Part shown: positions 11,995 through 32,000 of the stretch, piece after piece
Numbering within the stretch: position 1 is the stretch's first letter
Layout of the letters: every line of letters begins with the position of its first letter
Assembly (NCBI RefSeq): GCF_001735745.1
Contig: NZ_CP017260.1
Coordinates: forward strand, 1,260,001 to 1,292,000
DNA from: Formosa sp. Hel1_33_131
GTDB taxonomy: Bacteria; Bacteroidota; Bacteroidia; Flavobacteriales; Flavobacteriaceae
Direction of reading: 5' to 3'
DNA: 32,000 nt
Program-made: the position numbers and the translations under genes
The notes under the pieces: model-generated
Told to the model about the DNA's origin: nothing
Database searches by the model: none
Seen by the model: the letters and a program-made list of their open reading frames with translations, nothing else

Positions 11995-12152
11995 ACTTAA
12001 AATTGTTTCTGGTTAACCTTAATAAGCATGTAATATAATTGGTAAAAGTCTATTTAGAAAAAAGCCAAGTCACTTTTTCGAAATTCCAATTTAGATTACC
12101 TATAAATGCATTTTGAACAATGAAAGGCATGTTAGACTATCGAATAATCAAC

Positions 12153-12202
12153 GGGGAAATTGGTGGTTTTTCTTTCCCGCGAACCTAGGGGTTCCAAACC
12201 AC
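12153..12202. other. GC-rich nested inverted repeats in the gltB/porin divergent intergenic region
   Basis: Three inverted-repeat pairs: GGGGAAA (12153-12159) with TTTCCC (12173-12178), GTGGTTT (12163-12169) with AAACCAC (12196-12202), and GAACC (12181-12185) with GGTTC (12190-12194). Function unknown. Confidence 0.3.
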
Positions 12203-12269
12203 AAAAAGTAATGATACAAAAGCAACGCACTATTGAAATATCAAAAATATTATAAATATAATTACAATA

Positions 12270-12287
12270 CCCCCAAAATAAAGGGGG
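12270..12287 (+). promoter_or_regulatory. distal C-run/AT-core/G-run box (CCCCCAAAATAAAGGGGG)
   Basis: Same architecture as the boxes at 12322 and 14898 but with an 8-nt core. Its centre is 53 bp upstream of the proximal box centre. Confidence 0.35.
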
Positions 12288-12321
12288 TTAAAATAATTAT
12301 TACATAAAAATGACGCTAATA

Positions 12322-12364
12322 CCCTTATTTTTTAAGGGGGGTATGTCATTTATTATTAGTTTTG
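12322..12364 (+). promoter_or_regulatory. porin-amt promoter candidate: 20-bp box CCCTTATTTTTTAAGGGGGG, 15-nt spacer, -7 box TAGTTTTG
   Basis: TAGTTTTG (12357-12364) matches the Bacteroidota -7 consensus TAnnTTTG, 40 nt before the porin ATG. The box (12322-12341) sits where a -33 element would be. The glnK-amtB promoter has the same layout. Confidence 0.5.
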
Positions 12365-12404
12365 AGCCGTTAACTAAAATTATTAACTACTAAAATTAAC
12401 TATT

Positions 12405-13382
12405 ATGAAAAAAATTATTTTAAGTGCTGTTGCATTCATCGGAGCTTTGTCTCTAAACGCACAGGATGAAGCCCCTAAATTATCCATATCGGGTACTGTT
12501 GATGCTTATTACCAAAGTTACTTGACTGCTTCAGATGATGCATCTGGTTCTTTTGGAACCTCGTTTGCTGATGAAACTGGATTTGCTTTAGGAATGGCCA
12601 ATGTTGTTCTTAGCTATGAAGGTGAAAAAACTGGAGTTGTTGCTGATGTCGTTTTCGGCCCAAGAGCTGATGCTGCTGTTGGAGGTTACAACCTCAACCA
12701 ATTGTATGCTTACTGGAATGTAAGTGAAAACACAACCTTAACAGTGGGTCGTTTTAATACTTTCTTAGGCTATGAAGTCATTTCAGCTGCTGGAAATTTT
12801 AACTACAGTACGTCTTACTTATTCTCAAGCGGTCCTTTTTCTCATGTTGGGTTAAAAGCTGATTTTGCTTTAGGTGAAGATTTTAGCTTGATGTTAGCCG
12901 TCATGAATCCTACAGATGTAAACAACAACGCAACTGGAGATTATGGGTTAGGTGCTCAATTGGGTTATGCTGGTCAATATTTAAACCTTTATTATGACAA
13001 TGATTCTGTATTAGGTTTCGAAATTGACTATACAGGTGGGTTTGATTTATCTGAATCTTTTTTCTTAGGAATCAATGGTGCTTACCAAGTTAGTGACGAT
13101 GCTGGTTTTTACGGCGCTGCACTTTACCCACAGTTAGCAACATCTGAATCTTTTTCTATAGGATTAAGAGGTGAACTTTTTGGACTTCATGCAAAAGATG
13201 TTGATGATTTACCAAGTGTTTTTGCTACGACCTTAACTGGAAGTTACACAGTTGAAAACTTAACAATTAAACCAGAAGTAAGATTAGATTCATGGTCTAA
13301 TGACGAGCCTTATGTTGATACTGACGGTGTTGCTTCTAAGAGCTTAGCAGCATTTACTGTTGCCGCTATTTATTCTTTCTAA
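12405..13382 (+). CDS. outer-membrane beta-barrel porin linked to the ammonium transporter
   Basis: 325 aa with signal peptide MKKIILSAVAFIGALSLNAQ. The sequence is Gly/aromatic-rich with alternating pattern and ends ...FTVAAIYSF, a terminal Phe typical of OM barrels. It lies 32 nt upstream of amt with no terminator between. Confidence 0.8.
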   Translation: MKKIILSAVAFIGALSLNAQDEAPKLSISGTVDAYYQSYLTASDDASGSFGTSFADETGFALGMANVVLSYEGEKTGVVADVVFGPRADAAVGGYNLNQLYAYWNVSENTTLTVGRFNTFLGYEVISAAGNFNYSTSYLFSSGPFSHVGLKADFALGEDFSLMLAVMNPTDVNNNATGDYGLGAQLGYAGQYLNLYYDNDSVLGFEIDYTGGFDLSESFFLGINGAYQVSDDAGFYGAALYPQLATSESFSIGLRGELFGLHAKDVDDLPSVFATTLTGSYTVENLTIKPEVRLDSWSNDEPYVDTDGVASKSLAAFTVAAIYSF

Positions 13383-13414
13383 GGTCAATATTAACCAATC
13401 AAAATATATAATTT

Positions 13415-14704
13415 ATGTCACATTTAATTAACAACTTACCTCTAGTAATTCAAGATGCCGCTGCGGTTGAGAATCTTGCTAGTGCTATCAAAGACGATAT
13501 GGGGATGTTATGGATGCTTATTGCAGGTATCTTAGTATTCTTCATGCAAGCAGGTTTTACTTTAGTAGAATCAGGAATGACACGTTCAAAAAATGCAGTG
13601 AATATCGCAATGAAAAACTTGCTTGATATTGCTGTAGGATCTCTTACCTACTGGTTTGTAGGATACTCTCTCATGTACGGAGACACAACCAATGGTTGGT
13701 TCTTCTGGAGTGGAATTATGCAAGGTGAAGGTGCTGATTTATTCTTCCAAACAATGTTTGCCGCCACTGCTGCAACGATTGTTTCTGGAGCAATTGCTGG
13801 AAGAACAAAGTACTCAACGTACATTATCTTTTCAATCGTAATGACTGCTATTATCTACCCAATTGCAGGTGGATGGCAATGGCAAGGATCAGGTTGGTTG
13901 ACTGAGCTCGGTTTTATTGACTTCGCTGGTTCTTCAATCGTGCATGCCGTCGGTGGTTTTGCTGCTTTAGTGGCTGCTTATATGGTAGGTCCTAGAATTG
14001 GAAAATACGTAAACGGAAAAGTAATGCCTATTCCAGGACACAACCAGATATTAGCAACCTTAGGGGTGTTTATCCTTTGGTTGGGATGGTTTGGTTTTAA
14101 CGGTGGATCTCAACTTGCTTGGGGTGGAGACGATGCGGTTGCCGCTTCAACAGTGGTGTTGATCACGAATCTTGCTGCTGCTGCAGGTGCGTTAGGCGCG
14201 CTTATTACGACTTGGATCTGGTACGGTAAGCCAAATTTAGCGCAATCTTTAAATGGAGCGTTAGCTGGATTGGTGAGTATTACTGCAGGTTGTGGAAACA
14301 TGACAGCTGGTGGTGCTGTATTGGCCGGACTCATTGGTGGTATCATTGTGGTGTTCTCTATCGAATTTATCGAAAAGAAACTTAAAATTGATGATGCTAT
14401 TGGTGCTGCTTCTGTTCACGGAATCGTTGGATTCTGGGGAACAATCGTGATTGGACTTTGGGGTGTTGACGGAGACGCTGGACTTGGAATCTTCAACGGT
14501 GGTGGATCTGCACAACTTGTTGCACAACTGACTGGAGGATTGGCATATGCTGTATGGGCTGTTGTTCTTTCTTTTGTAGTGTTTGGAATCCTTAAGTACA
14601 CTGTTGGATTAAGAGTTACTGAAGAAGAAGAAGTTGCTGGACTTGATATCTCTGAACACGGATCTATTGCATATCCTGGAAAAAGAGAAAGAGGTCAAGA
14701 CTAA
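13415..14704 (+). CDS. amt: ammonium transporter (Amt family), copy 1
   Basis: 429 aa with Amt motifs FFMQAGFTLVESG, DFAGSSIVHAVGG and AASVHGIVGFWGT (twin-His pore). Confidence 0.95.
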   Translation: MSHLINNLPLVIQDAAAVENLASAIKDDMGMLWMLIAGILVFFMQAGFTLVESGMTRSKNAVNIAMKNLLDIAVGSLTYWFVGYSLMYGDTTNGWFFWSGIMQGEGADLFFQTMFAATAATIVSGAIAGRTKYSTYIIFSIVMTAIIYPIAGGWQWQGSGWLTELGFIDFAGSSIVHAVGGFAALVAAYMVGPRIGKYVNGKVMPIPGHNQILATLGVFILWLGWFGFNGGSQLAWGGDDAVAASTVVLITNLAAAAGALGALITTWIWYGKPNLAQSLNGALAGLVSITAGCGNMTAGGAVLAGLIGGIIVVFSIEFIEKKLKIDDAIGAASVHGIVGFWGTIVIGLWGVDGDAGLGIFNGGGSAQLVAQLTGGLAYAVWAVVLSFVVFGILKYTVGLRVTEEEEVAGLDISEHGSIAYPGKRERGQD

Positions 14705-14963: not shown

Positions 14964-15302
14964 ATGAAAAAAGTAGAGGCAATCATTAGAAAATCTAAGT
15001 TTTCTGGTGTCAAAAAAGCACTGCACGAAGTCGGTGTCAATTTCTTTTCCTATTGGGACGTTACTGGCCTAGGAAACGAAAAAGAAGGCCATGTGTACAG
15101 GGGTGTTTCTTATAGCACGAGTGATATTCAAAGACGTTATTTATCTATTGTCGTGAACGATGATTTTGAAGAGGCAACGATCAAAGCCATCCTAACAGCT
15201 GCCTCAACAGGTGAGGTTGGCGATGGGAAAATTTTTGTATCACAGGTCGATGAAGTATATAGAATTAGAACCGGCGAAAAAGGCGGAAACACATTAAAAT
15301 AA
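14964..15302 (+). CDS. glnK: nitrogen regulatory protein P-II
   Basis: The ORF track starts at a TTG (14922). The ATG at 14964 gives a 112-aa protein, MKKVEAIIRKSKFSGVKKALHEVGV...GHVYRGVSY...TGEVGDGKIFVSQVDEVYRIRTGE, with P-II T-loop YRG and B-loop GDGKIF motifs. It lies 5 nt upstream of amtB. Confidence 0.92.
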   Translation: MKKVEAIIRKSKFSGVKKALHEVGVNFFSYWDVTGLGNEKEGHVYRGVSYSTSDIQRRYLSIVVNDDFEEATIKAILTAASTGEVGDGKIFVSQVDEVYRIRTGEKGGNTLK

Positions 15303-15307
15303 CAACA

Positions 15308-16549
15308 ATGGAATTACTTACTATCAATAACGTATGGATGATGATCTGTACGGCACTCGTCTTTTTTATGCATACCGGATTTGCGTTTCTCGAAATCGGA
15401 CTCACACGTCAAAAAAACACGATTAATATTTTATTTAAAAACATCTTTATTATCACGGCAGGACTTTTACTTTATTATGTCGTCGGCTTTAACTTAATGT
15501 ACCCAGGTGATTTTAATGGCGTCCTTGGATTTGCAGGTTTTGGATTGGATGCACCTTTAGCAGACGGAGCTTTTGATTTAGCATATAGCGAAGGCTATAC
15601 CTATTGGACTGACTTTTTATTCCAAGGTATGTTTGCCGCAACGGCTGCTACCATTGTTTCAGGTGCTGTCGCAGAGCGCATGAAAATTGGTGCTTTTATG
15701 ATTTTCACGGTCTTCTATGTAGGATTCGTGTATCCAATTGCGGGATCTTGGCAATGGGGTGGTGGATTTTTATCCTCATTAACTATTGGAGAAGCCGAAG
15801 GCTTTTATGACTTTGCAGGATCTACACTTGTACACTCTGTGGGTGGATGGGCTGCTTTGGTGGCTGTTTACCTTCTCGGTTCACGTATTGGGAAATTTAA
15901 CAACGGAAAGCCACAGGCTATTCCTGGGCACAGCATTCCATTAGCAACGGCTGGGGTTCTTATTCTTTGGTTAGGATGGTTTGGTTTTAACGGAGGATCT
16001 GTACTCTCTGCTGATCCAGAAGCAACGTCCTTAACGTTGGTAACGACTTGTTTGGCTGCTGCTGCGGGTGGTGTCATCGCAATGATTACCTCAACACTTT
16101 TATACAAAAACTTAGATTTAACAATGTTCCTGAATGGAATTTTAGGAGGTCTTGTAGGAATTACGGCGGGTGCCGATCAGATGAGTCCAGGAGATGCAAT
16201 TCTGATTGGAGCGATCGCTGGAGCACTTATTGTATTTGCCGTGAGCTTGGTCGATAAAATAAAGTTAGACGATCCCGTAGGTGCCATTGCGGTACACCTT
16301 ATTTGTGGAATTTGGGGAACCTTAGCGGTGGGTCTTTTTGGAGCCAAAGCAGGCTTTGATCAATTTCTAGTTCAACTTGTAGGGGTTCTGTGTTACGGCG
16401 TATTTTGTGTCGCAACCTCTTTTATTATTATATACACCTTAAAGAAAACAGTGGGTATTAGAGTTTCGGAGCGTGAAGAGCTCGAAGGGCTTGATGCACA
16501 CGAACATAAAATGGATGCTTACCCCGATTTCAGGTTAAATGAGCACTAA
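15308..16549 (+). CDS. amtB: ammonium transporter (Amt family), copy 2
   Basis: 413 aa with motifs FFMHTGFAFLEIG, DFAGSTLVHSVGG and AIAVHLICGIWGT. Forms the classic glnK-amtB pair. Confidence 0.95.
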   Translation: MELLTINNVWMMICTALVFFMHTGFAFLEIGLTRQKNTINILFKNIFIITAGLLLYYVVGFNLMYPGDFNGVLGFAGFGLDAPLADGAFDLAYSEGYTYWTDFLFQGMFAATAATIVSGAVAERMKIGAFMIFTVFYVGFVYPIAGSWQWGGGFLSSLTIGEAEGFYDFAGSTLVHSVGGWAALVAVYLLGSRIGKFNNGKPQAIPGHSIPLATAGVLILWLGWFGFNGGSVLSADPEATSLTLVTTCLAAAAGGVIAMITSTLLYKNLDLTMFLNGILGGLVGITAGADQMSPGDAILIGAIAGALIVFAVSLVDKIKLDDPVGAIAVHLICGIWGTLAVGLFGAKAGFDQFLVQLVGVLCYGVFCVATSFIIIYTLKKTVGIRVSEREELEGLDAHEHKMDAYPDFRLNEH

Positions 16550-21664: not shown

Positions 21665-22828
21665 ATGAATCTGATACAATATCCTACTATTTATCTTGAA
21701 CAAAAAACGCACAAAAAAGAAAGTCAGCTTTTACTGAAATTTTCTTTTGACAACACGTTAATAGGGCTTATTAAATCTATAAGAGGCACTCATTGGAGTA
21801 AAACCATGAATGCTTGGTACCTTAAAAATTCCGAAGAGAATTTATCACTTATTTTAGAATTATTTAAAGGTGTTACTAAGGTAGATACCTCAAAAGTTAT
21901 CAAAAAAACACACTTCAAAAGAAACTTAACAGAATCACAAAGAAAATTGTTAAATGCTTTTTATTTATTCTTGAAAGGTAAACGGTACAGCAAAAGCACC
22001 ATACAAACCTATACTTTTTTTATAGCAGACTTTATAAATTTTCATACAAAGACACCCATAGAAGAACTTACAAACAGAGATGTAGAACTATTTATAGAAA
22101 CCGTTTTTATAGAACGAAAGTATTCTGTTAGTTCGCAAAGACAATTTATAAGTGCCTTAAAGATATTTACTACTTTTTGTCCGCAAACAAAGATTAATGA
22201 TTTGTCTTTAGAGCGACCAAAAAAATCTAGAATACTTCCTAATATATTGTCTCAAGAAGAGGTGATAAGAATTATACAATACACACAAAACATAAAGCAT
22301 AGGGCTATTTTAACTTTAATATATTCTTGTGGATTGCGAATAGGAGAGCTTATCAATTTAAAATTAGTTGATTTTCATATTGAAAGAAAGCAACTTATTG
22401 TAAAAGAAGGAAAAGGCAGAAAAGACAGGTTTGTAAGTCTAGCAGATAGTTTTCTCCCGTTGTTATCTAACTATTATTCTTCTTATAAACCAACAATCTA
22501 TTTTGTTGAAGGACAAAATGGAGGTAAGTATAGTGCTGAAAGTATTCGAAGTTTTTTAAGAAAAAGCTGTAAAAAGGCAGGTATAAAAAAGCCTGTAACA
22601 CCACATACATTAAGGCATAGTTATGCTACACATTTGTTAGAAAATGGAGTAGATTTAAGATACATACAATCTTTATTGGGTCATTCAAAACCCGAAACTA
22701 CTATGATTTATACCCATGTACAAAGAAAAGATTTAATGGAAATACAAAATCCTTTGGATGTGGCATTACAAAAATTAAATAAAATAAATAATAACAAACA
22801 AAAAGTTGTGTTATCCCGTAATATATAA
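21665..22828 (+). CDS. tyrosine-type site-specific recombinase/integrase heading the accessory island
   Basis: 387 aa. Catalytic residues are all readable: R in CGLRIGELINL, K in EGKGRKDRFVSL, H-x-x-R in HTLRHSYATHL, H in LLGHSKPETT and Y in MIYTHV. An N-terminal SAM-like/core-binding region precedes them. Confidence 0.92.
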   Translation: MNLIQYPTIYLEQKTHKKESQLLLKFSFDNTLIGLIKSIRGTHWSKTMNAWYLKNSEENLSLILELFKGVTKVDTSKVIKKTHFKRNLTESQRKLLNAFYLFLKGKRYSKSTIQTYTFFIADFINFHTKTPIEELTNRDVELFIETVFIERKYSVSSQRQFISALKIFTTFCPQTKINDLSLERPKKSRILPNILSQEEVIRIIQYTQNIKHRAILTLIYSCGLRIGELINLKLVDFHIERKQLIVKEGKGRKDRFVSLADSFLPLLSNYYSSYKPTIYFVEGQNGGKYSAESIRSFLRKSCKKAGIKKPVTPHTLRHSYATHLLENGVDLRYIQSLLGHSKPETTMIYTHVQRKDLMEIQNPLDVALQKLNKINNNKQKVVLSRNI

Positions 22829-22838
22829 CCGTTAACAC
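22826..22838 (+). other. minimal TAAC-C-GTTA-ACAC junction overlapping the recombinase stop codon (attI-like candidate)
   Basis: TAACCGTTAACAC. TAAC/GTTA form an inverted pair around one base. The following TAACAC matches the first 6 nt of the left ends of the 188/189-bp elements. Confidence 0.35.
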
Positions 22839-22884
22839 ACCCTTTTGTTGACATATAACTAGTTACCCATCATTAAAAAAAACT

Positions 22885-23484
22885 ATGATTTGGAATAAAC
22901 TTCCACATTGCGATAAATTATTTGAGAAGTTTCTCAGTCCTTGGTATCCAGAAAACGAGAGACCAAAAATGACTCGTCCGGATATGTGTGTAATATCAGG
23001 GTATGAAGACAAAACCTTGGACATTGACAAAATCCAATATCTAACCAAAGAAGGCTTAAAGGAGACAAAAGATATTTTTAATACCATGAGAGAATCCTAT
23101 CAAAGAGACTTTCAAAATTTCAAAGAATTCAAAGAACTGGATTTGGACGTAATAGATTCAGTTGACAAAGCATTTGATAAAAAAGAAGTAAAAGAGCTCA
23201 TCAAAATGAGTGACCCTAAAGATTTCGGAAACGGGTACTTAGTTACTGTTTGTGAATTCGGTTTGGCTCTTGGTGACTTATTCGTCCAAACTGGAAAATT
23301 TAAATGGCTTTATTCATATCCATATTTTCATTCAATTGTTGTCAACCCTGAAACAGGACAAGGAATAACAGTGTTTGATTGGGCTGTTAAAAAATTCAGT
23401 TCTTATGGAATCGATGATGGCTATAAATGGAAGTTTATGAAAGTAATGGAATTGATAGAAGAAGACATTAAAAACGTTGGGTAA
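22885..23484 (+). CDS. hypothetical protein, first cassette-like ORF
   Basis: 199-aa ORF on the array strand with no family recognised by eye. Its TAA stop (23482-23484) is the first 3 nt of repeat element 23482-23669. Confidence 0.7.
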   Translation: MIWNKLPHCDKLFEKFLSPWYPENERPKMTRPDMCVISGYEDKTLDIDKIQYLTKEGLKETKDIFNTMRESYQRDFQNFKEFKELDLDVIDSVDKAFDKKEVKELIKMSDPKDFGNGYLVTVCEFGLALGDLFVQTGKFKWLYSYPYFHSIVVNPETGQGITVFDWAVKKFSSYGIDDGYKWKFMKVMELIEEDIKNVG

Positions 23485-23669
23485 CACTGTATATAGCAAA
23501 TAGGGCGTTCGGTGGTTTACGAGAGTTCATTGCTATTTACCAACACCACCAAATCGTTGATTTGGCTTTTAAAATGAATAAATTAAAAACAAAATACAAC
23601 GCTTTGGCTCAGTGCAAACTTGAAAGTTTATCACTTTCTACTGCCCTACATGCCTTATACTAAACGTTA
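23482..23669 (+). repeat. 188-bp element with imperfect terminal inverted repeats (attC-like candidate), copy 1
   Basis: Left end is TAACACTGTATATAGCAAATAGGGC (23482-23506) and right end is GCCCTACATGCCTTATACTAAACGTTA (23643-23669). It is homologous end to end with 30487-30675. Confidence 0.75.
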
Positions 23670-23837
23670 TACCCAATTCAAAAAATATTTTCCTAAGAGA
23701 TAAAACAATGATAGACTTTCTAAAGGGGAAATAGATTTGATTTTTTCTAAAACAAAAGAAGGAGGGATAATAGATTTCTCCGCTACCGCTTCGAAATGAA
23801 TAATTTTATAAATTTTTAATTTTTAACCTTAATTACT

Positions 23838-24440
23838 ATGATAAATATTTTTAATAAGTTTTTTGAAAAAAAATATATGCTTGAAAAAACAAGTAAAATG
23901 TTAGATGAGAATGTATTTTGGGATATCATTGATTTGTCTTTAAAAAATACAAATAATAAAGATAGTCAAGAAATTTTTTTAGTTAAAGAAATTCAAAAGT
24001 TAAGTCCAGAAGAAATAATTGGTTTTAGACTCAGGACTGATAAATTGTTATATGACACTTATAACTCAGAAATGTGGTGCGCAGGATATTTGATGAACGG
24101 AGGTTGTTCCGATGATGGGTTTGAATATTTTAGAAATTGGGTTATTTCAAGAGGAAAAGATACTTATTATAATGCTAAAAATAATTCTGATTCACTAATC
24201 AGTGAAATAGCAGATGAAGATGAATATGAATATGATTTTGAAAGTTTTTGGTATGTTGCATTAACTGCATTTGAAAACAAAACAGGAAAAGAATTATATG
24301 ATTATATATCAGATGACTTTAAAACAAATGAAGGAAATTATCCTCAATTTGAATTTAATTGGGAAGAAGAAAAACCTGAAACCATGAAGTCTATATGCCC
24401 CAAGTTATTTGAAAAGTTTTGGAATTTCAAATTAGTTTAA
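23838..24440 (+). CDS. DUF4240-like protein
   Basis: 200 aa. FWDIIDLS near the N-terminus and EMWCAGYLMNGGCSDDGFEYFRNWVISRGKDTYYNA match my memory of the DUF4240 signature. Confidence 0.8.
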   Translation: MINIFNKFFEKKYMLEKTSKMLDENVFWDIIDLSLKNTNNKDSQEIFLVKEIQKLSPEEIIGFRLRTDKLLYDTYNSEMWCAGYLMNGGCSDDGFEYFRNWVISRGKDTYYNAKNNSDSLISEIADEDEYEYDFESFWYVALTAFENKTGKELYDYISDDFKTNEGNYPQFEFNWEEEKPETMKSICPKLFEKFWNFKLV

Positions 24441-24450
24441 GTAAAATAAC

Positions 24451-24981
24451 ATGAGCAAGACAGCTGCTGAGCTAATGGCTGAATTAGCAAACAATAAAGA
24501 GTATCTAGATAAGAAAAAAAGGCAAGATGAGAAATTTGCTAATTTAGAAAAAATTTATACTGAAGATGAGCGTAAATTAGTTGCCGAATTAAGTAAATCG
24601 GGCTATCCAGTTCGATCGGTTTGGGATTTTGTTAATTCTGATAATTACTATTTAGGCGCAGTGCCTATTTTAATAAATCATTTGAAGGCTAAGCATCACC
24701 CTAAAATACTAGCTGGATTGGCGAGGTCATTGGCAGTTGCTGAGCTTTCAAGCAACGATGAACTTTGGGAGCTATTATTAAATCTTTATGATCAGACTCT
24801 TTCAGATTCTGAAATTAGTGTTCCAGAAGAACGTGGTGCGCAAGAATCCATCGCCGTAGCACTAGAATGCTTAGCTATCAGCTCCAGAGCTGATGGTCTT
24901 AAGAAACTTATAAGCAGAAATCCCAAAGGAGATGGAGTTCGCTGGCTTAAAGATAAATTAAAATATTTTTGTCAAAATTAA
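24451..24981 (+). CDS. hypothetical protein, helical-repeat-like
   Basis: 176-aa ORF, 10 nt after the previous stop on the same strand. No family recognised by eye. Confidence 0.7.
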   Translation: MSKTAAELMAELANNKEYLDKKKRQDEKFANLEKIYTEDERKLVAELSKSGYPVRSVWDFVNSDNYYLGAVPILINHLKAKHHPKILAGLARSLAVAELSSNDELWELLLNLYDQTLSDSEISVPEERGAQESIAVALECLAISSRADGLKKLISRNPKGDGVRWLKDKLKYFCQN

Positions 24982-24991
24982 CATTCAAATC

Positions 24992-25477
24992 ATGAACAAA
25001 AGAACTGTTACAAAAGTCGGTGATATTTTTGAAGTAGTAATCGAAGAGGGTTATAAAAAATATATTCAATTGGTTGCCATAGATAGCCATCAATTAAATA
25101 GTGATGTTATTTGTGTTTTTGAAACAAAATATCGTTTCGACGAAAAACCATCAATTGATTTAATCACTTCAGATAGAATGGATTTCTATACACATACAAC
25201 AGTTAGCGCAGGGGTAAAATGGCTGGATTGGGTAAAAATAGGAAGAAGTGATGAATTAGGGCGGTTAGATAATTTAATTTTTAAACACACAGATGACTAC
25301 GGACATGGAGTAGAGCAATCTAACTTTTGGAGAGTATGGGGAGTAAGTGGTAAAATTTATCGCATAGGAAATCTTACAGATCAATATCGAAAGACTGAGT
25401 ATGGCCTTATTTTCTCCCCGGAAAGTGTGGTCGAAAGAATGCGTACAGGAGAGGTTGACCCATACTACCCCGGCTGA
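24992..25477 (+). CDS. hypothetical protein, possible polymorphic-toxin immunity protein (K-x-GDIF N-terminus)
   Basis: 161-aa ORF, 10 nt after the previous stop. The N-terminal TKVGDIFEVVIEEG motif resembles PKKGDIFFINIDGVG in ORF 26907-27395. The Imm26-like assignment is from memory only. Confidence 0.7.
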   Translation: MNKRTVTKVGDIFEVVIEEGYKKYIQLVAIDSHQLNSDVICVFETKYRFDEKPSIDLITSDRMDFYTHTTVSAGVKWLDWVKIGRSDELGRLDNLIFKHTDDYGHGVEQSNFWRVWGVSGKIYRIGNLTDQYRKTEYGLIFSPESVVERMRTGEVDPYYPG

Positions 25478-25635
25478 TTGGTAATTTTTCCGTAAAATGA
25501 CTGATGTGAGATGCAAAAATTGCTCAAAGAAAATTTTATGAACTTAAAAGAGCTCGATATATGTTAAACTTTAATACTATTTATTTAGATGAGTCTGATA
25601 GAAAAACGAATAATTTCTAAAACCTATAAACAAGC

Positions 25636-26169
25636 ATGTTCAAAACAATACAATTCAAAGATGTTTTCCCAGAGCATTTTGGTTTCTTTCTGATGAGTCC
25701 TAAAAAACTGTCAACTTTTCATGATTTTGGTATAGAAGGTAAAAACCTTCTAGAAATTTACTCCAATTCAGACTTAGGGGATAAAGTAACTGAAGAGGGT
25801 ATTATCATTCCTATTTTGGAAGTTGAAGCTGATTATTATGATATAATTATTCATGATAAAGCAGAAGCAAGTTATATAGAAGACACCAAGAGAGCTTTCT
25901 CCTCACAAGGATGGATATTTTTTTCTACTGGAGAATTAATTTTTTCGAGTATTTCTCTTTTACTTAAGTGGGACTCAGACCATCCAAAGCTTTGTAATGC
26001 AAACCTTCCTAAAGGCTGGTACGAAGTATCTATTTATGGAGGGCTGGTTAAAGAAACCCCCACCTTTGAATTTGTATTTACTAAGTCTGATAAAAAACCT
26101 CAATACAATGGAAACTTAAATGAATTAAACCTCCGAGGTGTAGGAGTTTATAAAGTTAAAGAATTGTAA
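25636..26169 (+). CDS. hypothetical protein; weak resemblance to ComJ/Nin-type nuclease-inhibitor immunity proteins
   Basis: 177-aa ORF. The segments FPEHFGFFLM and LPKGWYEVSIYGG recall the ComJ pattern (QFTVF ... LPKGDYQL) as I remember it. This is unverified. Confidence 0.65.
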   Translation: MFKTIQFKDVFPEHFGFFLMSPKKLSTFHDFGIEGKNLLEIYSNSDLGDKVTEEGIIIPILEVEADYYDIIIHDKAEASYIEDTKRAFSSQGWIFFSTGELIFSSISLLLKWDSDHPKLCNANLPKGWYEVSIYGGLVKETPTFEFVFTKSDKKPQYNGNLNELNLRGVGVYKVKEL

Positions 26170-26195
26170 TTTATGTTAAAATTAATATTCAGATT

Positions 26196-26735
26196 ATGAA
26201 AAAAATCGACCCATTTAAAATACTTGGTACTGCTGTGAATAGTAAAAAGCAACAGCCACTAGAAGAAATTGTAATTATTGCAAGCCCTCAAACATTAAGA
26301 GAAATCGCCGTATTTCTGATTAATGCTGCTTATGAGATGGAGGTCAATGACTTTGATCATATGCATCTTCAGGATTCAATAGCTAATTTTTCATCGAAGA
26401 AGCATGCTGATATTATTGCTCACATAGATTACGATACGTCAAATCCAAAAAAATCTCTTGAGAAAAAAACTAATGAAAAATAAACAAAACAACTCATTAC
26501 ACATATTCGAGAGTCTTTATATAACCTAGGTTGGCTTATTAAAATAAATTTAGAAGATACTCAGTACAAAAATATTAAAATAAAAATTTTTGAAAGAGGT
26601 AACATAGATAATAAAGATGACTGGATTCATTGTAAGATTGAAAATAAAATATTCGAAGGTGCTTGTGGACCATTAAACCTAATCGAACTAATTCAATGTT
26701 TTAAGAATATAATAGAAGAACAAAAACTTGGTTAA
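26196..26735 (+). pseudogene. hypothetical gene split by a single in-frame TAA (95 codons, stop, then 83 open codons)
   Basis: ORF 26196-26483 ends in TAA (26481-26483). The same frame then stays open for 83 codons (TKQLITHIRESLYNLGWLIKINLEDTQYKNIKIKIFERGNIDNKDDWIHCKIENKIFEGACGPLNLIELIQCFKNIIEEQKLG) to the TAA at 26733-26735. No ATG/GTG/TTG occurs in that stretch. Confidence 0.55.
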
Positions 26736-26906
26736 AAAATTCATATTAACTAACGTAAGATTATTGCTATATTTAGTAGGTAGTCCAGCTTGTTTTGGTT
26801 TGTATCCTTGGGATGAATTTTATGATTCAAACTATTTTGATATGCTGCTTGTATCACTCAACAAAAAAATTTATGGAATAACTTATAAATAATAATTTTA
26901 ACATCT

Positions 26907-27395
26907 ATGAAACTAAGTGAATTACATTCTAAAATGAATGGCGGAAAACGAAGATTAAAACCCAAAAAAGGAGATATATTTTTCATTAACATTGATGGTG
27001 TTGGGCACATACCAGGGATGGTAGCCAAGGATGACATGAAATATGGCAGCACTCCATGTTTCTTGATATACATATATAATATTGTATTGAATCACAAGAA
27101 TGAGAAGTTTGAGATCAACAAAGGCGATTTGTTGATGCCTCCCTGCATGGTGCTAAGAAATAACTGGGAGCCAACTATTGGGTTTGAGCATCAATTTACT
27201 CTTGAAACTGATAAGATTGATGTTTTCCTCAACCACTGCTTTGGTGACGACGTACAGCCTGGAATTTATTTTGACGAATTTCAGAATCGATGCGAATATT
27301 TCGAACCATTCGCAGATAATTCGCTAGTTAACGTTACTGTGATTGCCTGGAAAATCATGAAAATAGTCAATGGAATAGAGGTTGAGAGGGATTGA
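26907..27395 (+). CDS. hypothetical protein, possible immunity protein (K-x-GDIF N-terminus)
   Basis: 162-aa ORF on the array strand. The N-terminal LKPKKGDIFFINIDGVGHIPGMV is shared with ORF 24992. Confidence 0.7.
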   Translation: MKLSELHSKMNGGKRRLKPKKGDIFFINIDGVGHIPGMVAKDDMKYGSTPCFLIYIYNIVLNHKNEKFEINKGDLLMPPCMVLRNNWEPTIGFEHQFTLETDKIDVFLNHCFGDDVQPGIYFDEFQNRCEYFEPFADNSLVNVTVIAWKIMKIVNGIEVERD

Positions 27396-27432
27396 ATTTT
27401 TTAAATAGAGGGTTATTTATCTTTCATTAAGA

Positions 27433-27630
27433 TTGAAAGGTTTGTACCAAGAAATAGGGTTACAGACAAAATCAAAATATTTTAGTAAATCAAAGTCTAA
27501 TTTTGCAGATTTAGCGGATTTCAAATTCGAGAAAATGACTACGGATTATTTAGATATTTACCATAAGATTAACGAGTCGGATATGAAAAGTATTTTGAAT
27601 TTTGCGATTTATTTATATCACATGAGATGA
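27433..27630 (+). CDS. small hypothetical ORF (TTG start), doubtful
   Basis: 65 aa, lysine-rich, with a non-ATG start. Its TGA stop lies 5 nt before the TAAC of the short site at 27636. Confidence 0.3.
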   Translation: MKGLYQEIGLQTKSKYFSKSKSNFADLADFKFEKMTTDYLDIYHKINESDMKSILNFAIYLYHMR

Positions 27631-27635
27631 AGGAA

Positions 27636-27652
27636 TAACGGCGCACAACACC
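27636..27652 (+). repeat. left part of a short TAACGG...CCGTTA site interrupted by the IS
   Basis: TAACGGCGCACAACACC. The partner half is at 29371-29424, and the 10-bp GCACAACACC is repeated on both sides of the IS. Confidence 0.45.
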
Positions 27653-27657
27653 GGTAA

Positions 27658-29370
27658 CCGTTGCACAAGCCCTCTAAAAAAGTAAAAAACCTTCCTTTTT
27701 AAGCCGATTTACAGGATGTATTATTAAAAAATGAGTGTGCTATTTTGTTTTTTTGAGGGGCTTACACAAGACCAAAACACCTTTATAAAGAGGGTTATTT
27801 CTAAAAAAACAACCCCAAGTGATTTCGCCTCACTTCTTGCCAGTTTCTGAGTGAATTTTAGATACTTTTTCAGGTTGTAAGCCATCGCAGATAAGTGCAT
27901 GACTTTGTTGGCTTGTTGTATGCCAAGGGTGTTGATCTTTCTCAGGCCCATAAACTGAGTGAGTGTTCCAAAAACAGGTTCTACGGTGCTTTGACGTTTG
28001 CGTTTCATAAAGCGTCCTTGTTTGCTGTGCACTCGGGCATTGTTTCGCTCATATTCCTCTCGGTAATAGGTCACTGAAAACTTCTTTTCTTTGGCTGTTT
28101 TCCCCAAGCATTGGAGTGCTATTGGACAGCCTTTGCATTGTTTGGTCGAACCGCGGTATTCTTTCTTTCTCGTGTGGGTTCTATAATCGTTAAATACTTT
28201 TTTGAAGGGAATCACTTCCCCTTGTGGACATACGTAATGATCCTCTTTTTTATGGTAAACAAATCCCTCGGGACCACCTTTGTAGGTGCCATGCGGAGGA
28301 ATGAAACTTTGTTTGTTGACGCCTTCTAAAAAGGCATAGTTCTCGCCACTGCTATATCCTGTGTCGGCGACACAGTTTTGCCATAGTAATCCTTGTTTCC
28401 ATAAACGCTTGTCTAATCGTTTTACGATATCTTGCAAGTATTGATTGTCTTTCTTATCGGCATGGTAGGCTTGGATGTCGGTGATGACATGATGGGCGGT
28501 GTCCACACTAAGTTGACTCATATAATTGAGCTTTCTGGCTTTGCCTGGTTTTACACTGATTCGGGCATCGGGGTCGGTGGGACTGTAATGGGTCTTATTA
28601 CTGGTGTATTTACTGCCTTTGTTCCCTGCACCGGGTCGCTGGTCTTGGTCGTTTGACCATTTCTTGTTGCGACTCTTTATTGCGCCTAGTTCTTGCTTAT
28701 TGGCACTAAGGGTTTGTTGGGTTTTAGGGGCTTTATTGTCTTTGGCTTGACGATGGGGCTTATCCATTCGGCTGATATGACGGAGCTGATGCAAGTGTGT
28801 TTCTAAGTCTTCTTTGGGAACTTTGAGCTCTAAACTGTCCATGGATGCATTGGCTTTTACTGGGGCTGAGTCGATGGTTTGGGTGTGACCGCTGACCATG
28901 CCTTTGGAAATACATAATTCTAACACTTTGGTAAAGGCCTCTTAAAACAGGCTTTCGGGAAACAACTGACGTGTACGACTGATCGTTGAATGCCATGGAA
29001 GTTCATCATCGATGTCATAGCCGAGGAAATACAAAATATCCATACGCATACTGCAATGGGATATCAATTTGCGATCGCTAATGATGTTTTCTAAATATCC
29101 GACCAAACACAGTTTGAAAAAAACTACGGGATCTACGCTTTTTTGTCCACTTGTCCCATAATAAGAACGCGTCAAGCGATACAAATATTCTAATTCTAAA
29201 ACGTTTCCTAACTGGCGATAAAAATTATCTTTTGGTATCCGTTCGCTCAAACTAAAGCAAGCAAACAGCTTTTCTTGGTAGGTCTTTTTTCCTTGCATCC
29301 ATAAATTTAAGAATTTTTATGAAAATTTAAAACTTATTTTGTAGTTTTATCATAAATAGTTGTGCAACAG
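27658..29370 (-). mobile_element. insertion sequence, IS1182/IS5-like, about 1.7 kb
   Basis: Terminal inverted repeats are CCGTTGCACAA (27658-27668) and TTGTGCAACAG (29360-29370; reverse complement CTGTTGCACAA). They enclose a DDE transposase gene. A direct repeat GCACAACACC lies just outside, at 27643-27652 and 29371-29380. Exact ends are uncertain by a few nt. Confidence 0.75.
27724..29298 (-). pseudogene. IS1182/IS5-family DDE transposase interrupted by one in-frame TAA
   Basis: ORFs 28942-29298 (InsH/DUF772-like N-terminus, ...HSTISRTRQLFPESLF) and 27724-28926 are in the same frame, separated only by the TAA at 28939-28941 (...ESLF*EAFTKVLELCISKG...). The C-terminus VEPVFGTLTQFMGLRKINTLG...AMAYNLKKYLKF is typical of this transposase group. 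Confidence 0.8.
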
Positions 29371-29424
29371 GCACAACACCTATACGCAATGCCCTTCGGG
29401 ACACTGCGCATAGCCAAACCGTTA
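29371..29424 (+). repeat. right part of the short TAACGG...CCGTTA site
   Basis: GCACAACACCTATACGCAATGCCCTTCGGGACACTGCGCATAGCCAAACCGTTA. The terminal CCGTTAT is the inverted complement of ATAACGG at 27635-27641. The trailing GTTATGCTCAATT resembles GTTATACCCAATT at 23666-23678. Confidence 0.45.
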
Positions 29425-29435
29425 TGCTCAATTAA

Positions 29436-29762
29436 ATGCAAAGACCAATAAAAAATATATGGATTGAGAGTGAAGACAAAGGAGCAATTATTGGCGGAAC
29501 TGAGGAAATAAATGACAATTCTGATGTAATTGTGACTTTTGATGATAAAAGTAAATATGTTGCTACATTCTTTACCTACGATAATATCGAGTATCTAAGA
29601 CAGAAGAATAGACAAACTGGTGAATGTCTAGATGGACGATTTTTCTGGGCTTCTGATATGATAATTATTGAAAGAATTAATAGAAAGGAAGTTGTAGAAA
29701 TTATTGAACACCTTATCAAAGAAAAAGAGTTTGAATCTATTTTTGACCAAATCACTGAATAA
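29436..29762 (+). CDS. hypothetical protein (108 aa)
   Basis: ORF begins 12 nt after the short site. No family recognised. It lies 3 nt upstream of the zinc-ribbon ORF. Confidence 0.65.
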   Translation: MQRPIKNIWIESEDKGAIIGGTEEINDNSDVIVTFDDKSKYVATFFTYDNIEYLRQKNRQTGECLDGRFFWASDMIIIERINRKEVVEIIEHLIKEKEFESIFDQITE

Positions 29763-29765
29763 TAA

Positions 29766-30002
29766 ATGGCTACTCAAATCTGTCCTAACTGCAAAAAAGA
29801 TTCATTTACTTGGAGCATAGATGAAGAAGAATCTCCTTTAACATACTGGGGATGCTACGAATGTAAATATGGAGCATACGAAGACGAATCTAAAGAAAGA
29901 ATCTGTAGTAATTGTGAAAAGAAAACAGAAAGTAGATTGAAAGATGAAGAGAAAGAATATTGGTGGTGTTCCAGCTGTAACTCTATATCAGAAATCAACT
30001 AA
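29766..30002 (+). CDS. small double zinc-ribbon protein
   Basis: 78 aa with four CxxC pairs (CPNCKK, CYECKY, CSNCEK, CSSCNS) in ribbon-like spacing. Confidence 0.65.
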   Translation: MATQICPNCKKDSFTWSIDEEESPLTYWGCYECKYGAYEDESKERICSNCEKKTESRLKDEEKEYWWCSSCNSISEIN

Positions 30003-30203
30003 CTTTTTCAAAGGAACTTCCAAAGCTTTAGCGATTTCCAAAAGTGAATAGATTGTTGGGTTGACTTTTCCATTCTCCAACTTTTCTAATGCCTGTCTAT
30101 CTTTATTGCAAGCACGAGCCAAATCTGACTGACTCCAGCCCTTCTGACTTCTTAACTCAATAATACGCTGACCGACTTTCTTTTTAAGTTGTTCTTTATC
30201 CAC
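29988..30203 (-). CDS. XRE-family helix-turn-helix transcriptional regulator (antitoxin/repressor candidate)
   Basis: HTH core IIELRSQKGWSQSDLARACNKDRQALEKLENGKVNPTIYSLLEIAKAL. The ORF track uses TTG 30245, but that extension would be encoded by the operator-like repeats. I prefer GTG 30203 (MDKEQLKKKVGQR...), though the start is uncertain. Confidence 0.8.
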   Translation of the reverse strand: MDKEQLKKKVGQRIIELRSQKGWSQSDLARACNKDRQALEKLENGKVNPTIYSLLEIAKALEVPLKKLVDF

Positions 30204-30210
30204 AAAACAA

Positions 30211-30299
30211 ATGTCATCTAATAATATGACATTTTTGTCATACAAAAGTTTGACAACTCAATTTGAATTACTATGTTTGTCATATAAATAGTTGACAAT
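30211..30299. promoter_or_regulatory. operator-like repeats between the divergent XRE and SymE-like genes
   Basis: Palindrome ATGTCAT-N8-ATGACAT (30211-30232), plus two about 24-nt direct repeats: TTTGTCATACAAAAGTTTGACAAC (30234-30257) and TTTGTCATATAAATAGTTGACAAT (30276-30299). Confidence 0.55.
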
Positions 30300-30499
30300 T
30301 GAGTAAATTCAGGATTTTAAAAATATACAGTAAGTTCCGTTATCGAACGTGGGACAATACAACTGTACCTGAAATAAGACTTGAAGGAAGATGGCTTGAG
30401 AAACTCGGATTTGAGCAAGGAAATGAAGTGTTAATTGAACAGAAAAAGAATAAGTTGATAATAACTGTGAAGAAAGAAAAAGAGCATAACACTGTATAA
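30299..30499 (+). CDS. SymE-like / AbrB-fold toxin-family protein
   Basis: 66 aa (TTG start). ...VPEIRLEGRWLEKLGFEQGNEVLIEQKKNKLIITV matches the SymE/SpoVT-AbrB pattern (IRL-G-WL---GF--G--V-----------L-I). Its stop lies inside the left end of repeat element 30487-30675. Confidence 0.7.
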   Translation: MSKFRILKIYSKFRYRTWDNTTVPEIRLEGRWLEKLGFEQGNEVLIEQKKNKLIITVKKEKEHNTV

Positions 30500-30675
30500 A
30501 AAAACATAGGGCATTTCTGCAAACCCGAAAGGTCAGTGAATAATACTAAGTCCGCCAAATATAAAATTTGACGTTTAAGACAAAAAAGATAAAAGCAAAA
30601 TATTATATTTGGCTAAGTACCAATTCGTAACGAAAGTGCTTTTAACCGCCCTACGTTTCTTATACGTAGACGTTG
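30487..30675 (+). repeat. 189-bp element with imperfect terminal inverted repeats (attC-like candidate), copy 2
   Basis: Left end is TAACACTGTATAAAAAAACATAGGGC (30487-30512) and right end is GCCCTACGTTTCTTATACGTAGACGTTG (30648-30675). Same orientation and length class as 23482-23669. Confidence 0.75.
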
Positions 30676-30724
30676 AAAAACAGCTAGTTTATAAATATAA
30701 ATTCTGCTATTATTTTTATTTTTT

Positions 30725-30767
30725 AGTAAACGTTTTTGTTTACTAATTAAATATTTTATATGTTTAC
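30725..30767 (+). promoter_or_regulatory. operator-like inverted repeat upstream of the HTH/nucleotidyltransferase pair
   Basis: AGTAAAC (30725-30731), 6 nt, GTTTACT (30738-30744), plus a third half-site GTTTAC at 30762-30767, 17 nt before the ATG. Confidence 0.4.
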
Positions 30768-30783
30768 ATGAAACAGCGGAATC

Positions 30784-31293
30784 ATGTTACCAAGATTAAA
30801 TAAAATTAAAGGAATACACCCAGGCACACTGTTAAGGTGGGAATTAAATAACCGAAATCTAAAAGGCAGTGAATTAGCGGATGCGATTGGCGAGCATAAA
30901 CAAACCATAAGTGCTATTCTTAATAAAAGGAGGGCCATAAACCCAAGTCTTTCTATTAAGTTATCAAAAGAGTTTAAAACAGACAACGATTACTTCATGT
31001 TATTACAAGCAAGTTATGACGTAAAATTAGTAGCGGAATCTGAAATAAAAAACACACCAAATCTCAATAATATAAGGAAAGTGCTTTTTTGGGATACTAA
31101 TTTTAATAACATTGATTGGAACAAAAATAAAAAAGCCGTCATACAGAGAATTTTAGAAAGAGGGAATAAAACTGAAATAAATGAACTCATTTTATTCTAT
31201 GGAAGAAAAACGATTTCCAAGGAAATTAAATCAATAAAGAAAAGCCACTTACCTTCTTTTGAGAAGAATATTATAGAGCATAATTTGAAATAA
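30784..31293 (+). CDS. HigA/VapI-like XRE HTH protein with a C-terminal extension (antitoxin candidate)
   Basis: 169 aa. The N-terminus IHPGTLLRWELNNRNLKGSELADAIGEHKQTISAILNKRRAINPSLSIKLSKEF is HigA-type. It is followed by about 80 extra residues (FWDTNFNNIDWNKNKKAVIQRILERGN...). It ends 4 nt before the next gene. Confidence 0.8.
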   Translation: MLPRLNKIKGIHPGTLLRWELNNRNLKGSELADAIGEHKQTISAILNKRRAINPSLSIKLSKEFKTDNDYFMLLQASYDVKLVAESEIKNTPNLNNIRKVLFWDTNFNNIDWNKNKKAVIQRILERGNKTEINELILFYGRKTISKEIKSIKKSHLPSFEKNIIEHNLK

Positions 31294-31297
31294 CAAA

Positions 31298-31945
31298 ATG
31301 GAGTTATTCTTAAATACTGTTTCCGATTTGCTTTGGAATTCTCTAAAACAATTAATGTCAATGGAGGTCTTTAATAGTTTTAGAATTGTTGGAGGCACCT
31401 CATTAAGTCTTCAACTAGGTCATAGAGAGTCCGTTGACATCGATTTATTTACAGATGCTGATTATGATAGTATCGCGTTTTCTTTACTTGAAACTAAATT
31501 GACTAAAACCTTTCCTTATGTAGATATATCACCCGTTGATTTGGTAGGAATGGGCAAGTCGTATTTTATTGGCAACAATGAAAATGAATGTGTAAAATTA
31601 GATTTATTTTACACAGATCCTTTTGTTTTCCCTTGTATTCTGGAACAAGGAGTTAGGTTTGCAAGTATTGAAGAAGTTGCGGCAATGAAATTTGAAGTAA
31701 TTGCTAATGGTGGCAGGAAAAAAGATTTTTGGGATGTCCACGAACTATTAGAAACTTACACGTTAGATGAAATGATAGACTTTTATCTCAAAAGAAGTCC
31801 ATATGGTTATTCAAAAGATGAATTACTCCTGAAAGTCGTTGATTTTTCTGATGCAGAAGACGATTTTACACCAAACTGCCTTAGAGGAAAAGTCTGGGAA
31901 TTAATTAAGTTAGATTTTGAAGTTAAAACCGATAAAATTATATGA
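31298..31945 (+). CDS. AbiEii/AbiGii-family nucleotidyltransferase (toxin candidate)
   Basis: 215 aa. FRIVGGTSLSLQLGHRESVDIDLFTD matches the GGTAL...HR-S-D-DLF nucleotidyltransferase motif of the AbiEii/DUF1814 family. Confidence 0.8.
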   Translation: MELFLNTVSDLLWNSLKQLMSMEVFNSFRIVGGTSLSLQLGHRESVDIDLFTDADYDSIAFSLLETKLTKTFPYVDISPVDLVGMGKSYFIGNNENECVKLDLFYTDPFVFPCILEQGVRFASIEEVAAMKFEVIANGGRKKDFWDVHELLETYTLDEMIDFYLKRSPYGYSKDELLLKVVDFSDAEDDFTPNCLRGKVWELIKLDFEVKTDKII

Positions 31946-32000
31946 ATCAAAGTCAATAAATTAGAGATTTGGTGGAACCAAAACACTCCTAACTATACTT

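Follow-up and report, generated by a model that had tools for sequence, protein, structure and literature searches.

Probable attC-like recombination sites in an integron-like gene-cassette platform of marine Flavobacteriaceae

Known systems and the locus in Formosa

Integrons consist of the integrase IntI, an attI site and an array of attC sites. Their cassettes mostly carry a single open reading frame (ORF) and an imperfect palindromic site (AAC...GTT), with the crossover occurring at the GTT. To our knowledge, all known integrons depend on IntI and its special insertion. Integrons are rare in Bacteroidota. Xer proteins act on one dif site, where they resolve dimers of the chromosome. The locus described here lies in a stretch of 32,000 nucleotides from Formosa sp. 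Hel1_33_131 (contig NZ_CP017260.1, positions 1,260,001 to 1,292,000), which is referred to as the window, position 1 being its first letter. An initial annotation, made from the sequence alone, had pointed to two elements (23482-23669 and 30487-30675) behind a tyrosine recombinase gene (21665-22828) and had attributed them to an attC-like site family. We consider it probable (about 0.85) that these elements are attC-like recombination sites of an integron-like gene-cassette platform in the chromosome of marine Flavobacteriaceae (Polaribacter relatives). The term attC-like refers to how the sites work and not to membership in the integron family.

A closely related type of array is known from gut Bacteroidales. 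Recombinase-associated acquired interbacterial defense (rAID-1) clusters were described there (Ross et al. 2019, 10.1101/471110; PMC12247911, 2025). They were defined by a 5' XerD-like recombinase which is at least 44% identical to B. fragilis BF9343_RS08045, followed by at least two co-directional genes with a GC content of 41% or less, orphan immunity proteins in the array, and repetitive intergenic motifs (10.1101/471110). The intergenic repeats were described as "reminiscent of integrons", close homologs of the recombinase were stated to be confined to Bacteroidales, and the authors considered it unknown how the arrays are built (10.1101/471110).

The window resembles such a cluster. An XerD-like tyrosine recombinase gene at the 5' end is followed by more than ten short, co-oriented ORFs, and the G+C content drops from ca. 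40% to ca. 30% at 21.6 kb (in the recombinase gene) and stays low up to the window end. The small ORFs 3' of the recombinase include those for DUF4240, Imm32 (3.7e-9) and a weak Imm26 match (Pfam), which are families linked to polymorphic-toxin immunity, and repetitive sites are present. The recombinase is 37.8% identical (residues 73-363) to the array integrase of Bacteroides ovatus, used as a proxy for the rAID-1 reference; judged by this proxy, the 44% identity level is probably not reached. Arrays from sister strains and related species mostly carry functions other than immunity. Beyond rAID-1 (Ross et al. being compared in bioRxiv form), literature searches aimed at integron-like systems in Flavobacteriia or Bacteroidota, or at the rAID mechanism, yielded no account of sites with this architecture and none of such a system in Flavobacteriia.

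Site architecture, cassette rule and strain variation

The two elements are homologous and have the same orientation, as stated initially; they can be aligned end to end with ca. 65% identity (blastn). Their positions were right, but the functional unit reaches a few bases further outward on each side, into the R boxes. Site 1 thus extends over 23477-23674 (AAC at 23483 to GTT at 23668, 186 nt) and site 3 over 30482-30680 (AAC at 30488 to GTT at 30674). A covariance model was trained on the bottom strands of 16 sites from the genomes of relatives, with no window site among them. It detects site 1 with 49.1 bits (E ~1e-8) and site 3 with 45.9 bits (E ~1e-7). A third site of a short class had been missed; this is site 2 (29369-29429; AAC at 29375 to GTT at 29423; 22.3 bits, E 0.004 in the window). 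All three sites are on the plus strand.

Relatives of the recombinase were gathered by a scan of one genome per species. The covariance model finds 63 sites (E<0.01) in 17 recombinase loci (loci and assemblies used for comparison carry L numbers). The predicted link to the recombinase is borne out in these loci: all 63 sites are downstream of a recombinase homolog and co-oriented with it, and none was found in the 10-kb upstream flanks. A strict regular expression (GTATA...TATAC) recovers only 25 sites, as it misses L-box variants (GTGTATA or GTGCATA) and the short class. A generic repeat finder applied to the window reported neither of the long copies because their alignment requires gaps.

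Both long copies have an outer imperfect inverted repeat, GTATA-N7/8-TAGGGC ... GCCCTA-N4/5-(C)TTATAC, with AAC at the left and GTT at the right. Across the family, the site plan is R'' (N4-7 AAC), 3 nt, L stem, variable interior, L stem, 6 nt and R' (GTT N4-7). AAC and GTT are invariant in 63/63 sites, and the 16-bp L stem (GTATA..TAGGGC / GCCCTA..TATAC) is located between them. The imperfect terminal inverted repeats recognized by the initial annotation are thus real, and its 2-3 unpaired bases on one arm correspond to a fixed internal loop between the R and L boxes, with 3 nt on one side (63/63 sites) and 6 nt on the other (56/63). The R' consensus is GTT-R-NNN, and bulged extrahelical bases are absent.

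The stem is conserved by covariation. In an alignment of the 63 sites, which was fitted to the covariance model, 98.3% of the pair cells are standard, and both partners vary in 15 of the 16 L-stem pairs. When the pairing partner is slid by 1-3 columns, 28-52% of the cells are paired and the covariation score drops from 0.52 to 0.03-0.07. Shuffled alignments never reached the observed pairing and covariation values. The same stem was obtained independently with MAFFT/RNAalifold, both from 16 sites (7 compensatory pairs) and from seven long-class sites (9 compensatory pairs); the long-class alignment contains two invariant G.T pairs within the 16-bp stem. Over the 63 sites, one stem position is always G.U and a second one is G.U in 50. 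On the top strand, both of these are A.C mismatches.

Folding of both strands as single-stranded DNA (ssDNA) had been proposed as a check, and it returned a conserved hairpin. When DNA parameters are used, 61/63 sites are more stable as the bottom strand (mean 2.55 kcal/mol, Wilcoxon p 1e-11). The terminal stem is formed on both strands of both long copies. For site 1, the bottom strand has -29.6 kcal/mol (z -4.5) vs -24.3 (z -2.4) for the top strand; for site 3, the values are -22.5 (z -2.9) and -21.0 (z -2.3), and for the short site 2, they are -13.9 (z -3.9) and -7.2 (z -0.8). This strand bias suggests that recombination may proceed via folded ssDNA.

Three size classes of the interior (about 10, 75 and 140 nt) are found, and site lengths range from 44 to 190 nt, with conservation at the ends only. 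The long class, which includes the two long copies in the window, is rarer, and its members have a second hairpin in common (GCCAAAT...ATTTGGC). The commonest class has 124 nt (L012, L019, L022, L024, L028; e.g., L024 13271-13394). Its interior is 85-95% conserved across species and resembles a terminator: it contains a hairpin (GAAAATCC-TCGC-GGATTTTC) and, behind it on the coding strand, a T-rich run.

The sites delimit cassettes according to a simple rule. Past each GTT boundary, a cassette begins with bases whose reverse complement directly precedes the AAC of the next site. This was scored on six bases beyond the invariant GTT/AAC for 62 adjacent boundary-to-next-site pairs. Complementarity is 6/6 in 51 pairs and 5/6 in nine, and is thus at least 5/6 in 60/62. 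Random pairings reach 6/6 in 2%, and the right flank of the site itself, which belongs to the next cassette, does so in 3/63. The rule is followed in chains of up to ten consecutive cassettes (L028, L024, L019, L027); L019 is Polaribacter filamentus ATCC 700397, with at least 8 cassettes. The ends of each unit are therefore those that would arise if a circle with a single, fully paired site had been opened at the GTT. In the window, cassette 1 (22862-23668) starts with GTTACCC, and its closing site has the reverse complement, GGGTAAC, as R'' box. The start of cassette 3, GTTATGCTC (29421), is the exact reverse complement (9/9) of GAGCATAAC to the left of site 3. For cassette 2 (23666-29423), the R boxes of the present sequence match with 3/6 Watson-Crick pairs, or with 6/6 when bottom-strand G.T pairs are included. 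When the R'' box is rebuilt to its state prior to the integration of an insertion sequence (IS; see below), the match is 8/9 including G.T (hand count).

Cassettes have a median length of 736 bp. In relatives, they span 0.4-1.4 kb, with up to 10 sites in a row. Most contain a single ORF, and 75 of the 94 cassette ORFs are in array direction. ORFs start 20-45 nt past the GTT and usually stop 8-14 nt ahead of the AAC. The initial annotation had the elements start on stop codons. This is correct for the window, where ORF 22885-23484 ends on a TAA that shares its bases with the TAAC at 23482-23485 and ORF 30299-30499 has its stop within GTATAA. It is not a rule of the family; the overlap at site 1 is the tight end of the distance distribution. 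Cassette contents in relatives include serine hydrolases, methyltransferases, GmrSD, SMODS, HEPN, Fic, HAD and flavodoxin-like proteins, LigB and AraC regulators. Contigs seldom share homologous cassettes; where they do, the neighbors can differ (window/L001, L070/L110, L043/L111).

Two arrays contain internal repeats. In L014, two consecutive cassettes (11186-12441 and 12441-13696) agree in length, ORF pattern and R boxes (GTTGTGTAC / GTACACAAC) and are a tandem duplication of a whole cassette. In L002, the first ~140 nt of an McrBC cassette with the mcrB start (11198-11340) recur right after its own site (15302-15445), resulting in a 69-aa ORF with the McrB N-terminus. The arrangement resembles either a tandem duplication of part of the cassette or what remains of an older copy after deletion.

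Cassette gain and loss, the lack of which would have counted against the initial annotation, is directly visible between near-identical strains. The 11.2 kb upstream are 99.1-99.8% identical among the window, L001, L002, L003 and L004 and code for gltB, amt, PII, phosphoenolpyruvate carboxylase, CYTH and an aldehyde dehydrogenase. The identical recombinase protein is encoded on at least 21 metagenome contigs. Identity stops exactly at the GTT at 22862-22864, 34 nt past the recombinase stop codon, and divergence is immediate. This GTT terminates an attI-like junction, TATAAC-NN-GTT (22829-22864, plus strand), which is kept after the recombinase stop codon in 19 loci, and cassette 1 starts with the same GTT.

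What follows the GTT differs between strains. It is an HTH (helix-turn-helix) gene, two methyltransferases and a DEAD helicase in L001; McrBC and a Gp49/HTH pair in L002; DUF6660, a TonB-dependent receptor, FUR and DUF1295 in L004; and the array of the window in L003 and L009. Depending on the strain, the cassettes encode a restriction-modification (RM) system, McrBC, an array of immunity genes, or a TonB receptor together with FUR. The first blocks are closed by sites of the family with 184 nt (L001 17929), 44 nt (L002 15261) and 189 nt (L004 15196). Their starts and the R'' boxes of the closing sites are GTTACCTG and CAGGTAAC for L001, GTTGGCACC and GGTGCCAAC for L002, and GTTGTGCAT and ATGCACAAC for L004.

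One unit is found in different surroundings. The HTH_3/DUF6922 and AbiEii genes (window 30672-32000; L001 18110-19440) are behind different cassettes and sites in the window and in L001. The site has the right end CGTT in both, and the unit has a normal cassette start (GTTGAAAAAC). The two sequences match from GAAAAACAG onward, with identity beginning at GTTGAAAAACAG, at the right-hand GTT of the site. In L001, the AbiEii unit is followed by an oppositely oriented SLFN/AlbA_2 gene.

The recombinase, a proposed mechanism and other explanations

The recombinase (21665-22828, plus strand) is an Xer-like tyrosine recombinase of 387 aa (Pfam, NCBIfam). An N-terminal region of ~75 aa precedes the SAM-like core-binding domain (Phage_int_SAM_4) and the Phage_integrase domain (2e-39). 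The protein reaches 220.8 bits against NCBIfam XerA_Arch (cutoff 220), and its best structure match is archaeal XerA (5hxy, 160 bits). It has 210 bits against the integron integrase model TIGR02249 (cutoff 265) and 166 against PRK15417 (cutoff 435). Upon alignment to VchIntIA (2a3v), recombinase residues 271-293 (23 aa) are opposite IntI residues 181-246 (66 aa). The IntI-specific insertion is therefore absent, and the system is thus not a true integron. Archaeal XerA and XerC/D are the best sequence matches and share the core-binding and catalytic architecture. Unlike in Xer/dif systems, however, dozens of hairpin sites and hypervariable cassettes form an array linked to the gene, and the protein has an extra N-terminal domain.

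This N-terminal domain (aa 1-78; 21665-21900) has a conserved W-x6-W motif and is present in three tandem copies in a homolog from a Bacteroidales metagenome-assembled genome (MAG; L030 10022-10800). It shows a weak match to Pfam HARP (E 0.015). A profile search against PDB sequences pointed weakly to 4o66 (E 0.066). The same entry was top of 350,542 chains in a Foldseek search (probability 0.91, E 0.054) with an AlphaFold model of the domain (core pLDDT, the predicted local distance difference test score, 62-77). HARP is the fork/junction-binding domain of SMARCAL1. From these profile and model matches, we treat the domain as possibly HARP-like, which is a lead and not a finding. The full-length AlphaFold model has a mean pLDDT of 57 and is poor beyond the N-terminal and core-binding domains because the input relatives are all at least 82% identical; it was not used for the catalytic domain.

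A mechanism can be proposed in analogy to integrons. The 21665-22828 recombinase would catalyze recombination at the sites, excising cassettes as circles by recombining two successive sites. The circular intermediates would then be inserted at the attI-like site TATAAC-NN-G|TT. The substrate of the recombinase at the cassette site would be the folded bottom strand, with the invariant G.T wobbles and the fixed 3/6-nt loop marking the strand to be recombined. The candidate HARP-like domain may read strand and structure, standing in for the IntI insertion.

Several other explanations have to be weighed. With their terminal inverted repeats, a length of ~190 bp and multiple diverged copies, the elements could be miniature inverted-repeat transposable elements (MITEs) that are mobilized in trans by a transposase. 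The initial annotation had named randomly dispersed copies with target duplications as the hallmark of a MITE. The copies are not scattered, and there is no target-site duplication beside either long copy in the window, as had already been noted. All 201 detected copies have a single orientation within arrays, and in recombinase-anchored loci, they occur only downstream of the recombinase. Their flanks follow the cassette complementarity rule, which is not a product of transposition, and the family varies between 44 and 190 nt with conserved ends only. We give next to no credence to a MITE origin. Alternatively, the elements might function as structured RNA (a stabilizer in the 3' untranslated region, a terminator or an antisense RNA) and not as DNA recombination sites. 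A strongly conserved, covarying stem right after ORF stop codons fits a terminator or stabilizer, as does the interior of the 124-nt class, with its hairpin and T-run. However, the conserved G.U pairs are on the strand antisense to the cassette genes, and the mRNA strand has the A.C mismatches. Rfam 15 has no match at gathering threshold in the whole window and none even at E<=1 in the region 22800-31000. A scan for sigma-70 promoters and terminators identified no promoter for the array and showed no enrichment and no terminator in the sites of the window, sigma-70 scans being uninformative for Bacteroidota. An RNA function also leaves the R-box rule and the strain breakpoints at the GTT unexplained and is very unlikely as the primary role, while a secondary role in transcript termination or stability may exist. 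In a further scenario, the neighboring integrase would have inserted one island (23.5-30.7 kb), with the two long copies as its attL and attR; this is extremely unlikely. The copies are direct repeats around 7 kb of low-GC DNA beside a tyrosine recombinase, but are only ~65% identical and have a third site between them. In relatives, up to 10 sites follow each other with cassettes of 0.4-1.4 kb, and strain variation begins at the attI-like GTT at 22862, not at the first long copy.

The locus shares with canonical integrons a recombinase, an attI-like site and an array in which most cassettes consist of a single ORF, apparently without a promoter, and an imperfect palindromic AAC...GTT site behind it. 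Further common features are R and L boxes, a crossover at the GTT, cassette starts which pair with their own R'', bottom-strand folding and a terminal structure of variable length. By their ends, the units look circularizable, with G|TT boundaries. Cassettes with defense systems are also found in both (10.1101/2024.07.02.601686). The recombinase can be aligned to VchIntIA and attains 210 bits against TIGR02249, so a divergent IntI with true attC sites might be considered. This score is, however, below the cutoff of 265, XerA is a better match than IntI (160 vs 130 bits), and the protein probably does not belong to the IntI clade. It lacks the insertion (23 vs 66 residues) which binds the extrahelical bases in IntI and has an extra N-terminal domain. 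The asymmetry of the sites results from 3/6-nt spacers and G.T wobbles instead of extrahelical bases, and R' is GTT-R-NNN, not GTTRRRY. The recombinase gene is co-oriented with the array, the attI-like site is 3' of the gene, and some cassettes are multigene units of 4-7 kb. A canonical integron is thus most unlikely. The attC-like assignment made by the initial annotation holds at the level of structure and cassette rule, while the recombinase itself is not an IntI.

Of the systems described so far, rAID-1, which the initial annotation did not mention, comes closest. The array of B. ovatus BFG-107 (L034; NZ_CP081918, 11010-22828) has SMI1/KNR4, Imm26, PoNe, PoNi-like and Tdi1 immunity genes behind the integrase. 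Its sites of ~60 nt obey the same cassette rule, share an AAACC spacer with the system of the window, and fold better on the bottom strand. Their R' box is ATT, again with a bottom-strand G.T. This array is preceded by a TetR/AcrR regulator gene, and the record is a 190-kb "plasmid" with otherwise housekeeping-looking genes. The systems differ in their hosts (Bacteroidales for rAID-1, marine Flavobacteriaceae for the window) and in their sites (~60 nt with R' ATT for the rAID type; 124-190 nt with R' GTT here). In addition, the cassettes of the system described here also code for RM, McrBC, GmrSD, SMODS and AbiE systems, a TonB receptor with FUR, and enzymes. The system of the window is a flavobacterial relative of rAID-1. 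Both are integron-like in their working, and neither is an integron by the IntI criterion.

Some points weigh against the interpretation as attC-like sites of a cassette platform. The evidence is wholly computational, and neither an excised circle nor an empty attI-like site has been observed. A double-stranded mechanism with an asymmetric core is an alternative to the use of ssDNA. Cassette 2 fits the rule only with G.T pairs and holds seven ORFs; it may have lost at least one internal site or may consist of several fused cassettes. A closing site for the last (AbiEii) unit was not found in L001. The HARP-like assignment is based on three individually weak matches (E 0.015-0.07).

Window layout, distribution and significance

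The remaining features of the window can be read as a series of cassettes on the plus strand. Cassette 1 (see above) consists of one ORF for a 199-aa protein (22885-23484), which has no Pfam match, and site 1. The seven co-oriented ORFs of cassette 2 code for DUF4240, proteins of 176 aa, 161 aa and 177 aa, Imm32, an Imm26-like protein and a protein of 65 aa. In cassette 3 (29421-30674), a 108-aa ORF, a zinc-ribbon ORF and a 66-aa ORF, called SymE-like in the initial annotation, are accompanied by an HTH ORF on the minus strand. Cassette 4 (30672-32000) with the HTH_3/DUF6922 and AbiEii genes is open at the window end.

Cassette 2 contains an IS on the minus strand (27653-29370) with a DDE_Tnp_1/DUF772 transposase, which is located inside the left edge of site 2, exactly at the R''/spacer edge of this short site. 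On either side of the IS is a direct repeat of 10 bp, GCACAACACC (27643-27652 and 29371-29380), and its terminal inverted repeats are GTTGCACAA. The ORF of the transposase is intact in L003 (524 aa) but broken into two parts in the window (400 + 118 aa). The metagenome assemblies L003 and L009 break at or within the IS. A suspected R-box complement at 27660/29361 was rejected, as it represents the inverted repeats of the IS. Two diverged ammonium-transporter paralogs (13710-14320 and 15609-16090) around a PII gene give rise to the repeats D1, D2 and D10 (71-79% identity). These are an ordinary gene duplication and are unrelated to the sites.

Relatives of the recombinase are encoded in Polaribacter species, in "Flavobacterium sp. 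SCGC AAA160-P02", in Gillisia lutea (49% identity), and in a Paludibacteraceae MAG (45%) and a Bacteroidales MAG (37%). In two Bacteroidales MAGs, the cassette rule holds for sites of ~128 nt. A plasmid of Chryseobacterium sp. SNU WT5 (L033; NZ_CP041688, 11974-21000) codes for a 42%-identical recombinase, annotated as "tyrosine recombinase/integron integrase". It has an attI-like CATATAAACAAGTT and three repeats of another site type (R'' TTTTCCCAAC), and its array contains an IS110 element and a group II intron. Possibly, this plasmid is a mobile form of the platform.

The exact left-end pattern of the long class occurs on at least 119 marine metagenome contigs. Among the matches listed, 138 sites are found on 61 marine contigs, and mixed orientation was never seen. 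Arrays span the full length of 13-kb metagenome contigs, with long and medium sites intermixed. The recombinase gene is absent from all 61 fragments with sites, which is expected for internal parts of long arrays; arrays without a recombinase may also exist. Many assemblies (L011, L015, L016, L018, L020, L021, L025 and L026) stop 0.1-1.5 kb past the recombinase gene, which suggests that arrays are under-assembled and, thus, under-counted in draft genomes.

Taken further, the comparison leads us to lean slightly towards the view that Bacteroidota, from marine Polaribacter-like flavobacteria to gut Bacteroides, have a second, IntI-independent kind of integron. In such a system, an Xer-like recombinase with one to three N-terminal HARP-like domains would capture circles via bottom-strand hairpins, with polarity set by G.T pairs and the 3/6-nt loop. 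The rAID-1 clusters would be its immunity-gene-rich gut branch, and the wider system would also stock anti-phage defense and metabolic genes.

Textbooks present integrons as the way in which bacteria acquire and rearrange single genes. Here, the logic of the cassettes is the same, and the recombinase has no IntI insertion. Explicit and testable definitions are now available for where cassettes are inserted and where the crossover falls, for how the sites are built, for the strand that is likely to be active, and for a candidate structure-recognition domain. The platform is abundant in marine flavobacteria, and strains with 99% identity elsewhere differ in entire cassette-borne defense systems (RM, McrBC and Abi, i.e., abortive infection).

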